Shown piece after piece: positions 19,767-55,072 of a DNA stretch of 64,000 nucleotides (positions are counted from its first letter, which is position 1; each line of letters starts with the position of its first letter). The stretch is taken from assembly GCF_044647545.1 (NCBI RefSeq), contig NZ_CP172818.1; one strand, 5' to 3'. Source of the DNA: Escherichia coli (GTDB taxonomy: Bacteria > Pseudomonadota > Gammaproteobacteria > Enterobacterales > Enterobacteriaceae). Made by a program: the position numbers and the translations under genes. The notes beneath the pieces are model-generated. The model saw nothing but the letters and a program-made list of their open reading frames with translations, ran no database searches and was not told the DNA's origin.

Positions 19767-19795
19767 TCAAAAAAAACGCCGGATTAACCGGCGTC
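19767..19795 (-). terminator. Rho-independent terminator after fadD
   Basis: Minus strand reads ACGCCGGTTAATCCGGCGT followed by T8. Confidence 0.6.
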
Positions 19796-19813
19796 TGACG
19801 ACTGACTTAACGC

Positions 19814-21499
19814 TCAGGCTTTATTGTCCACTTTGCCGCGCGCTTCGTCACGTAATTCTCGTCGCAAAATTTTTCCGACGTTAGATTTCGGTAACTCATC
19901 ACGAAACTCCACCAGCTTCGGTACTTTGTAGCCCGTGAGCTGACGGCGGCAAAAGGTCACCAGTGACTCTTCGGTAAGCGATGGATCTTTTTTCACTACG
20001 AAGATTTTCACCGCTTCACCACTGGAGCCGGAAGGTACGCCAACAGCCGCGACTTCCTGTACGCCAGGATGCTGCATGACGACATCTTCAATCTCGTTGG
20101 GATAGACGTTAAAACCGGAAACCAGAATCATGTCTTTTTTACGATCGACAATGCGCAGGAATCCTTCTTCATCCATCACCGCGATGTCGCCGGTGTGTAA
20201 CCAGCCATTTTTGATGATTTCATCGGTAGCATCCGGACGCTGCCAGTAACCCAGCATCACCTGCGGTCCTTTGACACAAAGCTCACCTGGTTGACCCGGT
20301 GGTACTTCGTTGTCGTCGTCATCCACCAGTTTGGCTTCCGTCGACGGCACCGGCAAACCGATGCTACCACTATGATAATCAATATCATACGGGTTAACGC
20401 TGACCAGCGGCGCACACTCGGTCAGGCCATAACCTTCCAGCAGATACTGTCCAGTCAGTTTCACCCAACGTTCTGCCACCACTTGCTGAACAGGCATCCC
20501 TCCGCCTGCGGAAAGATGCAGACTGGAGAAATCCAGCTGCTGGAACTCTTTATTGTTCAGCAACGCATTGAACAAGGTGTTAACGCCAGTGATAGCGGTA
20601 AACGGATATTTCGCTAACTCTTTTACCAACCCTGGAATATCGCGCGGGTTAGTGATAAGCAGGTTCTGCCCACCCAGTTCGATAAACAGCAGGCAGTTAA
20701 TGGTCAGGGCAAAAATGTGATACAGCGGCAGCGCCGTCACCACCAGCTCTTTGCCCGGATGCAACAGCGGACCATAGGTCGCGTTAACCTGTTCCAGGTT
20801 CGCCAGCATATTGCGGTGAGTCAGCATCGCGCCTTTCGCCACACCAGTGGTACCGCCGGTGTATTGCAGGAAAGCTAAATCTTCCGGCACCAGTTCGGGT
20901 TTGACGTACTGCATCCGGTAGCCGCTGTGCAGGGCGCTACGAAATGAAATGGCATCTGGCAGATGGTATTTCGGCACCAGACGCTTGATGTATTTAACAA
21001 CGAAATTGACTACCGTGCCTTTTGCCGTAGATAGCTGATCGCCCATACGGGTCAGAATTACGTGCTGAACGGCGGTTTTATCAACCACTTTTTCCAGAGT
21101 GTGGGCAAAGTTAGACACGATAACAATCGCCGATGCGCCGCTATCGTTAAGCTGATGCTCAAGTTCACGCGGGGTATACAACGGGTTAACGTTTACGACA
21201 ATCATCCCGGCACGCAAAATGCCAAACAGCGCCACCGGATATTGCAATAAATTAGGCATCATCAACGCAACGCGATCGCCTTTCTTCAGTCCCAACCCTT
21301 GTTGCAAATAAGCGGCAAACGCGCGACTGCGTTCTTCCAGTTTGCGGAAGGTCATCACCTCCCCCATATTCACAAACGCGGGTTGATCGGCGTAGCGCGC
21401 GACCGACTGCTCAAACATATCTACCAGAGATTGATAACGGTCAGGGTTGATCTCCGTCGGAACGTCCGCGGGATAACGGTTAAGCCAAACCTTCTTCAA
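19814..21499 (-). CDS. fadD: Long-chain fatty acyl-CoA synthetase
   Basis: AMP-binding signature ([15 protein letters not shown]); 561 aa from a non-ATG start (LKKVWLNRY...); ORF track Met at 21565 is upstream of it. Confidence 0.9.
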
Positions 21500-36535: not shown

Positions 36536-36994
36536 ATGACAATCACGGACCTGGTACTGATTCTTTTCATCGCCGCACTCCTGGCCTTCGCGATCTACGA
36601 TCAGTTCATCATGCCCCGCCGTAACGGCCCCACTCTGCTGGCAATTCCTTTGCTCCGGCGTGGTCGCATCGATAGCGTTATCTTCGTCGGATTGATTGTC
36701 ATTCTTATCTATAACAACGTCACGAATCATGGCGCGCTAATAACAACATGGTTATTAAGTGCACTGGCTCTGATGGGTTTTTATATATTCTGGATCCGCG
36801 TTCCGAAGATCATCTTTAAACAAAAAGGTTTTTTCTTCGCCAATGTCTGGATTGAATATAGCCGAATCAAAGCGATGAACTTGTCGGAAGATGGCGTGTT
36901 GGTGATGCAATTAGAACAGCGTCGGCTGTTAATCCGCGTTCGAAATATCGACGATCTGGAAAAAATTTATAAGCTTCTCGTTTCAACTCAATAG
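36536..36994 (+). CDS. yobD: UPF0266 membrane protein YobD
   Basis: 152-aa ORF with TM helices. Confidence 0.85.
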
Positions 36995-37194
36995 GTTATG
37001 AATTTAGCCAAAGCTATGTTTAGTGTATTTTTAATAATCAGACATAGCTTAGGCTATATTACCTCTTCCCTTATTTGTTATTTATTTTAACGTTTCATTG
37101 ATATATAAATCTAAATGAAAATCGTTATCAATAAAGCAATGAAATAATATATTCCAACAGTTGTTTTATATTCTCAAAATATGTTAAGGTTGCG

Positions 37195-37330
37195 CCCTCA
37201 TTTGGGGAGTAGCCGATTTCCAGATTCCGGAAATGTACGTGTCAACATACTCGTTGCAAAACGTGGCACGTACGGACTGAACACTTTCAGTCAGGCGAGA
37301 CCATATGCACATCAATCGCTATGCCTGCAT
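37195..37330 (+). promoter_or_regulatory. yybP-ykoY-type Mn(2+) riboswitch in the mntP leader (approximate bounds)
   Basis: Long structured leader with conserved-looking blocks TTGGGGAGTAGCCG (37201-37214) and CAGGCGAGACC (37291-37301) about 120-220 nt upstream of the mntP ATG. Confidence 0.5.
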
Positions 37331-37423
37331 GAACGCGAAAACCCATCGCGGCTTGTTGTTCATGTATGCATGTTTGCTGGGGGCGATGATGTGTTTTATG
37401 GATACCCCGGTCAGGACGTTGTC

Positions 37424-37990
37424 ATGAATATCACTGCTACTGTTCTTCTTGCGTTTGGTATGTCGATGGATGCATTTGCTGCATCAATCGGTAAAGGTGC
37501 CACCCTCCATAAACCGAAATTTTCTGAAGCGTTGCGAACCGGCCTTATTTTTGGTGCCGTCGAAACCCTGACGCCGCTGATCGGCTGGGGAATGGGCATG
37601 TTAGCCAGCCGGTTTGTCCTTGAATGGAACCACTGGATTGCGTTTGTGCTGCTGATATTTCTCGGCGGGCGAATGATTATTGAGGGTTTTCGTGGCGCAG
37701 ATGATGAAGATGAAGAACCGCGCCGTCGACACGGTTTTTGGTTACTGGTAACCACTGCGATTGCCACCAGCCTGGATGCCATGGCTGTGGGTGTTGGTCT
37801 TGCTTTCCTTCAGGTCAACATTATCGCGACCGCATTGGCCATTGGTTGTGCAACCTTGATTATGTCGACATTAGGGATGATGGTAGGTCGCTTTATCGGC
37901 TCAATTATTGGGAAAAAAGCGGAAATTCTCGGCGGGCTGGTGCTGATCGGCATCGGCGTCCAGATCCTCTGGACGCACTTCCACGGTTAA
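37424..37990 (+). CDS. mntP: Mn(2+) efflux pump MntP
   Basis: ATG at 37424 gives 188 aa ([18 protein letters not shown]...); ORF track start 37181 is an in-frame extension through the leader. Confidence 0.9.
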
Positions 37991-38796
37991 TAAGAACGCT
38001 GCCAGAGGTGAATATTAAAGTCCGTCTGGCAGTCGAACACTTCTTTTGCTGCCAGTGTTTGCCAGACTTCTGGCTTCGCACGCCAGGCAAACGGCGTCAT
38101 CTGCAATAATGCGACGGCTTCGTCACCGCGAAGACGCATCGGATAACACAACTCATCACTCTGCTGTAATGTAAAACCTTCCAGTTGTTCTGCATGTGGT
38201 GCATGAAGATGTACTTCATTGTAAATCAGCCCCTTCAGCTCCATCAAATGTCGCGGTCCCGGCGTGGCAGTAATGACCCAACCGCCAGGCTTCACTACGC
38301 GCGCTAATTCTTCTGCTTTACACGGCGCGTAAATACGTATTATGGCGTCCATACTGGTATCGGAAAACGGCAAACGGTGGCTGGAAGCAACACAAAAAGT
38401 GACCTGCGGATAGCGTTTCGCCGCCGCTTTTATCGCTACCTTCGAGACATCCAGACCAAACGTGGTGATTTCGGGCAGCGCATCGGCAAATGCGTGTGTG
38501 TAATACCCTTCACCACAGCCAATATCCAGCACCGCCGTGGCCTTTTCATCAAGCCGTTCCCGCAGTTGGGCGACAATTGCATCACGCAGCGGCTGATAAT
38601 GTCCGGCATCTAAGAATGCGCGGCGTGCTTGCATCATTTCCGCGCTGTCGCCCGGATCACGAGACCGTTTATGCTGAACGGGCAGCAGATTGACATACCC
38701 TTCTTTCGCCATATCAAACTGATGTCGCAGGGGACAGATATAGCTGTTTTTTTCACGCGAAAGAGGCTGATGGCAAAGTGGACAGGAAAACGACAT
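37987..38796 (-). CDS. rlmA: 23S rRNA m1G745 methyltransferase
   Basis: 269-aa ORF with N-terminal Zn-binding Cys cluster and SAM-methyltransferase motif ([11 protein letters not shown]). Confidence 0.9.
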
Positions 38797-38889
38797 GACA
38801 ACTCCGGCAGGATACTAAAGGCCGCAAGTGTAACGCGAATCACGCGGCGGGCAAATATCCGAACGCCTGGAGCGAAGATAAAGCAAAGT

Positions 38890-38916
38890 AAAAAGCCTCG
38901 CATTCGGCGAGGCTTT
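38890..38916 (-). terminator. Rho-independent terminator after cspC
   Basis: Minus strand reads GCCTCGCCGAATGCGAGGC followed by a T run. Confidence 0.6.
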
Positions 38917-38961
38917 ATAGCGAGATTGAAGCGTATTCACACTTCAGATCAGTGGATTCGA

Positions 38962-39171
38962 TCAGATAGCTGTTACGTTAACAGCTGCCGGACCTTTCTG
39001 GCCGTCCTGAATTTCGAACTCAACGTTCTGACCTTCAGCCAGAGTTTTGAAGCCATTACCCTGGATAGCGGAGAAGTGTACGAACACGTCTTTGCTGCCA
39101 TCAGCCGGAGTAATGAAGCCAAAACCTTTAGACTCGTTGAACCACTTAACCTGACCTTTAATCTTTGCCAT
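38962..39171 (-). CDS. cspC: Cold-shock-domain protein CspC
   Basis: 69-aa [23 protein letters not shown]... with RNP1/RNP2 motifs. Confidence 0.95.
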
Positions 39172-39183
39172 TTGAAAAATTCC

Positions 39184-39327
39184 TTAGATTGTTTTCTTCG
39201 CCCGCAGGCATAACATAGATAAAACTGACACATTACTGCATGAGGCACCAATATAAGGCTCGGCAGAGAAGCGGTATTCAACGTCAACGTGTTTACTCAG
39301 GACTTCTTTACTGAAAATGCCACACAT
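39184..39327 (-). CDS. yobF: Small protein YobF (47 aa), co-oriented just upstream of cspC
   Basis: Hand-translated: [47 protein letters not shown]. Confidence 0.65.
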
Positions 39328-39996
39328 AAACAGAACTGTACCTCGTTTAACCCGAAATCTGTTATCACATACAACGTTAATTATGGCAAGCCATTTTTAA
39401 ACATGTCTCGATCAGACGCACAAATCTCGATACGTCTTCCACTTTTTTTGCACACTTATGCAACGGAATACGCGCCGATATATCATTGTGCTTAACCTTG
39501 CCAGTTCAGGCAGATACTTAAACTGACGTATTTTCTAACATAGTTCAATAAGTTCAGTTGTTCCAGGCCAGTGGGAGAAGTTATTACATAGTGCGTGCAA
39601 TATCACATTTTCTGCTATGCAATGAATAAAAAGTTATATCACTTTTTCTCATAAAACAGTCAGTTAACGGCCACCAATTACCCCAAAGAGAAGTCAATCC
39701 CCAATGGTATTGTAAATTTAAAATAAGAAAAATTGATGAATGCGCAAAAAAATCAAGAGAGAAACGTTTCGCTAATAAATAATACCATGCTTAATCACAA
39801 ATCCGATGTAAACATCCTAATAAATTAATGGGCTAAATATCTTTTTCTGATATCCCGTTACGCAAATAAATAATATGATAATTATTTGAAGTCAGACCAG
39901 AGTTTTAATTTGAAGCAGTTGCACCATGACAGTGCGTATAATCAGGATGAATTGAGTAACCCTTCAACGACGGGGTTACTCAAGATTGAGGAAGGA

Positions 39997-54799: not shown

Positions 54800-55072
54800 A
54801 TAAAGTCAGCGAAGGGAATGCTTCTGGCTTTTAACAGATAAAAAGAGACCGAACACGATTCCTGTATTCGGTCCAGGGAAATGGCTCTTGGGAGAGAGCC
54901 GTGCGCTAAAAGTTGGCATTAATGCAGGCTTAGTTGCCTTGCCCTTTAAGAATAGATGACGACGCCAGGTTTTCCAGTTTGCGTGCAAAATGGTCAATAA
55001 AAAGCGCGGTGGTCATCAGCTTAAATGTTAAAAACCGCCCGTTCTGGTGAAAGAACTGAGGCGGTTTTTTTA
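54800..55072 (+). ncRNA. ryeA: sRNA RyeA (SraC), antisense to SdsR (5' end not determined)
   Basis: Plus-strand terminator at about 55032-55072 (CCGCC...GGCGG then T7) downstream of the SdsR locus, consistent with the known cis-antisense arrangement. Confidence 0.35.
54840..54942 (-). ncRNA. sdsR: sRNA SdsR (RyeB)
   Basis: Minus strand reads GCAAGGCAACTAAGCCTGCATTAATGCCAACTTTTAGCGCACGGCTCTCTCCCAAGAGCCATTTCCCTGGACCGAATACAGGAATCGTGTTCGGTCTCTTTTT, matching the remembered SdsR sequence including terminator hairpin and U-tail; boundaries within a few nt. Confidence 0.65.

Follow-up and report, generated by a model that had tools for sequence, protein, structure and literature searches.

The region upstream of Escherichia coli mntP very probably reads as a yybP-ykoY Mn2+ riboswitch leader rather than as protein

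In the 64,000-nucleotide stretch of Escherichia coli DNA analysed here (the window), a long open reading frame (ORF) with an ATG start runs from 37181 to 37990 on the plus strand and encodes 269 amino acids, in which the region upstream of mntP is fused in frame to the 188-aa MntP. The question raised by this locus is whether that upstream region belongs to the protein or to a leader RNA. An earlier note, made from the letters of the DNA, had placed the true start of mntP at the ATG at 37424. Comparison with the NCBIfam MntP equivalog showed that the 188 positions of this profile cover, end to end, residues 82-269 of the 269-aa ORF, and the start of mntP in both the PGAP and the K-12 annotation is the ATG equivalent to 37424, which bears out the proposed start. 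The length of "roughly 230 nt" given for the interval upstream of it has to be corrected, as 37181-37423 comprises 243 nt. The best explanation of the region as a whole, which we hold with high confidence, is that bases 37198 to 37423 form the 226-nt 5' leader of the E. coli mntP mRNA and that this leader is a yybP-ykoY Mn2+ riboswitch (Table 1), an element that sets the amount of the Mn2+ exporter MntP made. The riboswitch of the mntP leader is already known; the reading is correct and changes nothing in the current picture.

The region is highly conserved within the species. Sequences at least 95% identical to the leader region were found in 5,418 of 5,426 complete E. coli genomes, several complete chromosomes match the 571 bases around the leader at 100% identity, and the order yobD-mntP-rlmA-cspC was the same at every E. 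coli match.

Table 1. Features of the mntP leader and coding region (positions in the window)
Feature	Position	Strand	Remarks
Promoter-proximal DNA	37181-37197	+	Upstream of the putative +1; holds the ATG at 37181 that opens the spurious 269-aa ORF
Complete yybP-ykoY Mn2+ aptamer	37199-37307	+	Four-way junction closed by P1.1; RF00080, model R1, covariation, MFE fold
P1.1, 5' strand (CAUUUGG)	37199-37205	+	Pairs with 37301-37307, one U.U mismatch; read from the sequence
L1, 5' side (GGAGUA)	37206-37211	+	Includes A37208 (A11); invariant block GGGGAGUAGC
P1.2, 5' strand (GCC)	37212-37214	+	Pairs with 37294-37296; 98.4% paired
P2 hairpin (AUUUCC/GGAAAU)	37216-37234	+	80.4% paired, 6 of 6 pairs changed on both sides; outside the selection
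P3.1 + L3 + P3.2 hairpin	37235-37273	+	Helices 96.5% and 98.5% paired; 6 and 4 pairs changed on both sides
L3 metal-binding loop (ACAUACU)	37245-37251	+	A37245 is A48; role of L3 from PMC12153347
P4 hairpin	37275-37292	+	67.6% paired; length-variable region, poorly aligned by MAFFT
3' closing strand: P1.2 (GGC), L1 (GAGA), P1.1 (CCAUAUG)	37294-37307	+	Covariation, 3'-block test, model R1
Platform hairpin	37308-37393	+	Stems 37308-37313/37388-37393 and 37316-37319/37383-37386
"G-box" (CUGGGG) in the platform loop	37377-37382	+	Candidate partner of 37405-37410; tentative
Anti-P1.1 strand (UAUGG)	37397-37401	+	Rivals 37199-37205 for the 3' strand of P1.1; directly 3' of the hairpin
"C-box" (CCCCGG)	37405-37410	+	2 nt upstream of the Shine-Dalgarno
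Shine-Dalgarno (AGGA)	37413-37416	+	7 nt before the start codon; read from the sequence
mntP coding sequence, Mn2+ exporter	37424-37990	+	188 aa; Pfam PF02659, 1.7e-55; NCBIfam NF008546 equivalog, 1.4e-124

The results of an Rfam scan of the whole window (64 kb) at the gathering threshold showed no match to RF00080. A sensitive scan of 601 bases matched this family at 37196-37292 with an E value of 6e-10 and 41.9 bits against a gathering score of 45, so that a default cmscan reports nothing here. The alignment was full-length in the model, yet it ended at P4 and so left the second conserved block uncovered. The mntP aptamers of K-12 (L002) and Escherichia albertii (L066) also scored below the RF00080 gathering threshold, while near-identical aptamers of Citrobacter scored 49-52 bits, with a maximum of 82.6 bits among more distant ones. 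Because the sensitive scan gives a match and K-12 fails likewise, we did not count the default-scan negative as a refutation; the miss is a matter of threshold placement, operational rather than biological. The check by cmscan put forward in the earlier note was therefore negative at the gathering threshold and positive in the sensitive scan, and taking the lack of a covariance-model hit as evidence against a riboswitch would misfire, since the validated K-12 mntP riboswitch falls short of the same cut-off. With the Mn-riboswitch model of Rfam 15, default annotation pipelines miss E. coli mntP, one of the best-characterised members of the family.

The two conserved-looking blocks singled out earlier, TTGGGGAGTAGCCG (37202-37215) and CAGGCGAGACC (37292-37302), each occur once in the 64-kb window. 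The motif of the L1 5' strand, GGGGAGUAG, has an exact match at 37204-37212, with a posterior of about 1 against the Rfam consensus; the L3 motif CAACAUAC lies in the P3 leg at 37243-37250; and the 3'-strand motif G(A/G)GACC, which closes L1, P1.2 and P1.1, is present as GAGACC at 37294-37307, where it is complementary to the 5' flank. A search with the pattern of the L1 and L3 motifs alone gave 120 loci from alpha-, beta- and gamma-proteobacteria, Clostridia, cyanobacteria and others. At 90 of these 120 loci, L1 and L3 were followed by a (G/A)AGAC block with P1.1/P1.2 complementarity, against one to three by chance (P1.1 register of 7-8 bp, a fixed register of 11 positions being too strict). 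Both blocks thus held up as conserved, the 3' block being tied to L1 and L3. The aptamer of the window stands in the leader of a metal exporter gene, mntP starting 117 nt after it, and a MntP homologue lies downstream at 36 of the 90 related aptamer loci with an L1 and L3 of the E. coli type. The remaining 54 of the 90 (among L003-L122) precede genes other than MntP homologues.

A hand-drawn four-way junction was projected onto a MAFFT alignment of 86 diverse sequences, in which it was 86.9% paired, compared with 29-42% when the 3' partners were slid by one to three columns. Its covariation score was 0.49, against 0.07-0.14 for the slid controls, and none of 500 shuffles scored as high; 29 of the 37 aptamer pairs were changed on both sides. 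The homologues had been gathered by their L1 and L3 motifs, with P1.1/P1.2 pairing as a filter, so that L1, L3 and P1.1/P1.2 are conserved by construction, and the values for P1.1 (80.7% of cells paired, 5 of 7 pairs changed on both sides) are those of a helix that was part of the filter. P2, P3.1, P3.2 and P4 played no part in the selection of sequences; P2, P3.1 and P3.2 were 80-98% paired with many changes on both sides. The MFE fold reproduced P1.2, P2, P3 and P4 (z = -3.1). A covariance model (R1), built from 63 non-enterobacterial sequences only and with a structure chosen by RNAalifold, gave one strong match in the 64 kb, at 37197-37309, which was full-length and included both blocks; its score of 78.7 bits (E of about 7e-18), to which the loop motifs used for collection add by construction, compares with 9.7 bits for the next-best match in the window. 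Together with the sensitive RF00080 match, model R1 and the covariation support the yybP-ykoY Mn riboswitch that the earlier note had proposed upstream of mntP.

Comparison of the window with K-12 showed that the mntP (formerly yebN) riboswitch of that strain, a member of RF00080, lies at the same locus and that the two leaders are about 99% identical. No difference falls in L1, L3, P1.1, the platform helix, the Shine-Dalgarno or the start codon. The four differences, at 37282, in the C-run at 37342-37344, at 37348 and at 37418, all fall in loops or linkers: two of them, including the indel, lie in an insertion of about 50 nt in the platform, and the others in the P4 loop, where 37282 is the single aptamer base that differs, and in the spacer between the Shine-Dalgarno and the AUG. 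The window has one extra C in the C-run and a G for an A at both 37348 and 37418. Through the extra C, which lies in the platform loop, the upstream ORF comes to be in frame with mntP and a 40-aa ORF annotated by PGAP arises. No functional difference from K-12 is expected. By analogy, the leader of the window should bind Mn2+ directly and be activated by Mn, as has been reported for the K-12 leader.

The riboswitch of E. coli alx (ygjT), which responds to Mn2+ and pH, belongs to the same family and follows the same ON logic through P1.1 as the window. In its published OFF state, the ribosome-binding site (RBS) pairs with the disrupted P1.1/L1 strand, which resembles unconstrained folds of mntP. 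The alx element differs from the window in that it lacks P2 and therefore forms a three-way junction, whereas the window is of the four-way mntP type. The L3 of alx is different, its P4 contains an intrinsic terminator, its platform is made up of several helices, and it responds to alkaline pH (PMC12153347). The Mn2+-bound aptamers of Lactococcus lactis yoaB and of the Xanthomonas oryzae yybP-ykoY element have been crystallised, and both share with the window the four-way junction, the L1/L3 metal core and the A-minor docking (PMC12153347). The helices of the window covary with homologues from the phyla of these two elements. The platform of the window controls translation and Rho attenuation, unlike the L. 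lactis element, in which P1.1 is said to compete with an intrinsic terminator, a result attributed to Price and colleagues in 2015.

Transcription of mntP would start near 37198, judging from published numbering, since this is the only +1 that fits both A11 in L1, the conserved adenosine of a cross-helix A-minor contact, and A48 as the first base of L3 (PMC12153347). With the +1 at 37198, the ATG at 37181 sits in the promoter. The claim that the upstream extension is leader RNA and not protein consequently stands for 37198-37423, while the 5' 17 nt (37181-37197) would be promoter. The untranslated region of K-12 mntP is reportedly 225 nt long, a figure said to go back to Waters in 2011 and Dambach in 2015, and via the K-12 alignment this length maps to base 37198. 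Further upstream of the promoter lies a 19-nt inverted repeat with arms at 37001-37019 and 37042-37060 that are 89% complementary; with palindromes of the AGC..GCTATG type inside, these arms resemble E. coli MntR operators. A Fur-box-like sequence, TGAAAATCGTTATCA, is found at 37116-37130, also upstream of the mntP promoter. Matches to miRNA families at 36990-37072 in the sensitive Rfam scan were rejected as artefacts of the upstream palindromes, unrelated to the leader.

That the two blocks are a chance resemblance in ordinary intergenic DNA would agree with the empty report at the Rfam gathering threshold. We regard this as a negligible possibility in view of the E value of the sensitive scan, the score of the independent model, the covariation, the 90 of 120 loci against the one to three of the control, and the identity of the leader to an experimentally characterised one. 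A reading frame without interruptions does run, in frame with mntP, from the ATG at 37181, and this strain might on that ground be thought to make an N-terminally extended MntP; we find this hardly credible. In K-12 the ATG equivalent to 37181 opens an 81-aa ORF that is out of the mntP frame, and a 1-nt deletion has the same effect in most E. coli, in which the match spans 280 bases and not 281 as in the window. Because K-12 and most E. coli have one base fewer, the in-frame fusion of the window is an accident of the strain. Among 17 enterobacterial leaders, the in-frame upstream extension of mntP has a length anywhere between 0 and 81 aa, whereas ATGAAT/ATGAAC is retained as the start. The equivalog profile leaves the extension out, and neither the 81-aa extension nor the 40-aa ORF matched a Pfam or NCBIfam family. 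The ATG at 37181 is, moreover, upstream of the putative transcription start, and an extended MntP would be translated straight across the covarying RNA structure. As far as sequence comparison goes, the frame and the sequence of the extension are not conserved in the way expected of protein-coding sequence. The ATGs of the interval are a related matter, the earlier note having regarded several in-frame and out-of-frame ATGs as typical of the yybP-ykoY class. There are indeed 11 ATGs in 37181-37423, two in the mntP frame (37181 and 37370) and nine out of frame, compared with about four expected from base composition, but neither their positions nor their frames are conserved in enterobacteria; the many ATGs of the leader are, on this comparison, incidental and do not mark out the riboswitch class.

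Wholly within the leader lies a 40-aa "hypothetical protein" (WP_000547919.1; 37305-37427, plus strand) that PGAP calls in the strains nearest to the window. If this ORF were a leader peptide whose stop overlaps the mntP start, its translation could be coupled to that of mntP and counter Rho. Apart from its annotation in the nearest strains, the ATGA overlap of its stop with the start of mntP is a classical arrangement for coupling, and Rho attenuation inside the leader (PMC11647493) would give an upstream ORF a use. The ORF is unannotated in K-12 and most E. coli, however, where the indel turns it into one of 27 aa with another C-terminus. The out-of-frame upstream ORFs of the 17 enterobacterial leaders vary in start position, length and frame, and the shared TGA follows from Met-Asn being conserved at the start of mntP. 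In addition, the ATG of the 40-aa ORF (37305-37307) lies within the 3' strand of P1.1 and is not preceded by a Shine-Dalgarno, and its product belongs to no matched protein family. A search of the papers available found nothing linking mntP to an upstream ORF or to a pseudoknot. We consider a leader peptide very unlikely: the conserved start, frame and length and the separate ribosome-binding site that one would expect of it do not appear in the sequences compared, and the 40-aa ORF is probably a spurious gene call. For annotation, the 269-aa ORF and the 40-aa "hypothetical protein" are instances of a structured leader misread as protein.

The riboswitch leader continues after the aptamer with an expression platform of 116 nt (37308-37423). 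In an alignment of 18 enterobacterial sequences, the platform helix was 91.9% paired, with compensatory changes at 7 of 10 pairs. The apical insertion of about 50 nt (about 37320-37376) is present in Escherichia and Citrobacter and absent from Enterobacter, Lelliottia, Pseudescherichia, Mixta, Providencia and Arsenophonus; the within-species indel in the C-run lies inside it. The helix between the anti-P1.1 strand and the 3' strand of P1.1 was 94.4% paired but nearly invariant, and hence gave no covariation. This pairing forms in unconstrained MFE folds, and the open fold was more stable than the aptamer-closed fold by 6.7 kcal/mol in E. coli and by up to 12.9 kcal/mol in E. cloacae, so that P1.1 needs the help of the ligand or of kinetics to be kept. 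The Shine-Dalgarno is kept as AGGA, UGGA or GAGG in the enterobacterial alignment. Nearest-neighbour folding of the leaders of nine species with the aptamer forced closed or left free showed no consistent direction in the accessibility of the Shine-Dalgarno and the AUG; the ViennaRNA mode "P1.1_forbidden" was ignored, as it also barred those bases from other pairings. A hairpin resembling an intrinsic terminator, at 37334-37350 with a T-rich tail, was rejected: it falls in the lineage-specific insertion, its stem is weaker in K-12, and such sites are no more numerous than in shuffles.

The K-12 mntP leader is represented by a crystal structure of the apo aptamer, 4Y1M, and co-transcriptional probing has shown that, without Mn, P1.1 and L1 are disrupted once the transcript is about 205 nt long (PMC12153347). 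The invasion of the 3' strand of P1.1 in our unconstrained folds agrees with this published disruption. The response to Mn is lost when T7 RNA polymerase transcribes the leader (PMC12153347), which points to kinetic control. Mn activates a reporter 7.5-fold, and its binding has been measured by ITC (PMC9603457). Rho terminates within the leader and early mntP, and Mn relieves this in part (PMC11647493). Too little MntP makes cells Mn-sensitive, while too much leads to membrane toxicity (PMC11647493).

In the mechanism that best explains these results, Mn2+ bound jointly by L1 and L3 would dock the two helical legs and stabilise P1.1 (37199-37205 with 37301-37307). When Mn2+ is lacking, UAUGG at 37397-37401 would lengthen the platform hairpin by invading P1.1, and the released, G-rich 5' strand would be free to pair with the translation-initiation region; translation would be low, and Rho would terminate the untranslated transcript in the leader and early mntP. 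When Mn2+ is present, P1.1 would hold and mntP would be translated, and translation would partly shield the transcript from Rho. This ON switch would be layered on the promoter control by MntR and Fur under which the literature places mntP transcription. The relay of the state of P1.1 to the Shine-Dalgarno is a step that we only infer, since the accessibility folding was inconsistent and the published probing found no Mn-dependent change at the RBS (PMC12153347).

The same riboswitch may instead act mainly through Rho-dependent attenuation of transcription and not through direct occlusion of the RBS, Mn-dependent folding altering the loading or the pausing of Rho and effects on translation being secondary. 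Bicyclomycin raises reporters 23- to 28-fold compared with 9- to 16-fold for Mn, and in vitro Mn restores run-off despite Rho in a reaction that contains no ribosomes (PMC11647493), both of which favour such an output, as does the lack of a Mn-dependent change at the RBS in the probing and in the folding done here. Translational fusions respond to Mn, however, the field calls the element a translational riboswitch, and the authors of the Rho study explain the relief by transcription and translation being coupled again (PMC11647493). A main output through Rho is thus a serious possibility, although we lean against it. Rho attenuation and translational control are compatible with each other and not mutually exclusive.

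The one possibly new item in the leader, put forward tentatively, is a helix between the G-box in the platform loop and the C-box. Among enterobacteria, 96.3% of this helix was paired, and at two of its pairs both sides had changed. Beta- and gamma-proteobacterial mntP leaders show the pairing again, formed there by unrelated sequences, as GGCCGG/CCGGCC, GGUCGGGCG/CGCCCGACC and GGUUGG/CCAACC (complementarity at loci L039, L013, L042, L099, L088, L059, L049 and L019). The energy of the duplex between the platform and the pre-start region was no better than in shuffles (median z of about -1.2; p <= 0.05 in 3 of 24 leaders), and the case for the helix accordingly lies in its covariation and the consistency of its position. 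These suggest, tentatively, a conserved loop-to-tail, pseudoknot-like helix in the platforms of translational Mn riboswitches.

In E. coli, the C-box follows the anti-P1.1 strand after no more than 3 nt, so that the loop-to-tail pairing would exclude the fully extended platform helix. On geometric grounds, the helix between the G-box and the C-box would mark the Mn-bound state and could form once P1.1 is held closed. As a second switch element, it might then work as a pseudoknot "latch" dependent on Mn, signalling the ON state and holding the C-box apart from the released L1 strand, a speculative proposal that we judge unlikely to hold. If real, such a latch would bear on a question raised in the literature, namely by what route P1.1 influences the ribosome-binding site, and the helix could give experimenters something definite to aim at in studying how aptamer and RBS are linked.

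At the other end of the gene, mntP (plus strand, 37424-37990) and the convergent rlmA (minus strand, 37987-38796) overlap by 4 nt (37987-37990), with the stop codons included, which leaves no room for an intergenic terminator between them. The other Rfam matches above the gathering score in the window were the antisense overlapping pair SraC/RyeA and SdsR/RyeB at 54836-54980 (plus and minus strands), a thermoregulator of the cspA type over the cspC gene and its leader at 38887-39347 (minus strand), and sroD at 19770-19855 (minus strand).
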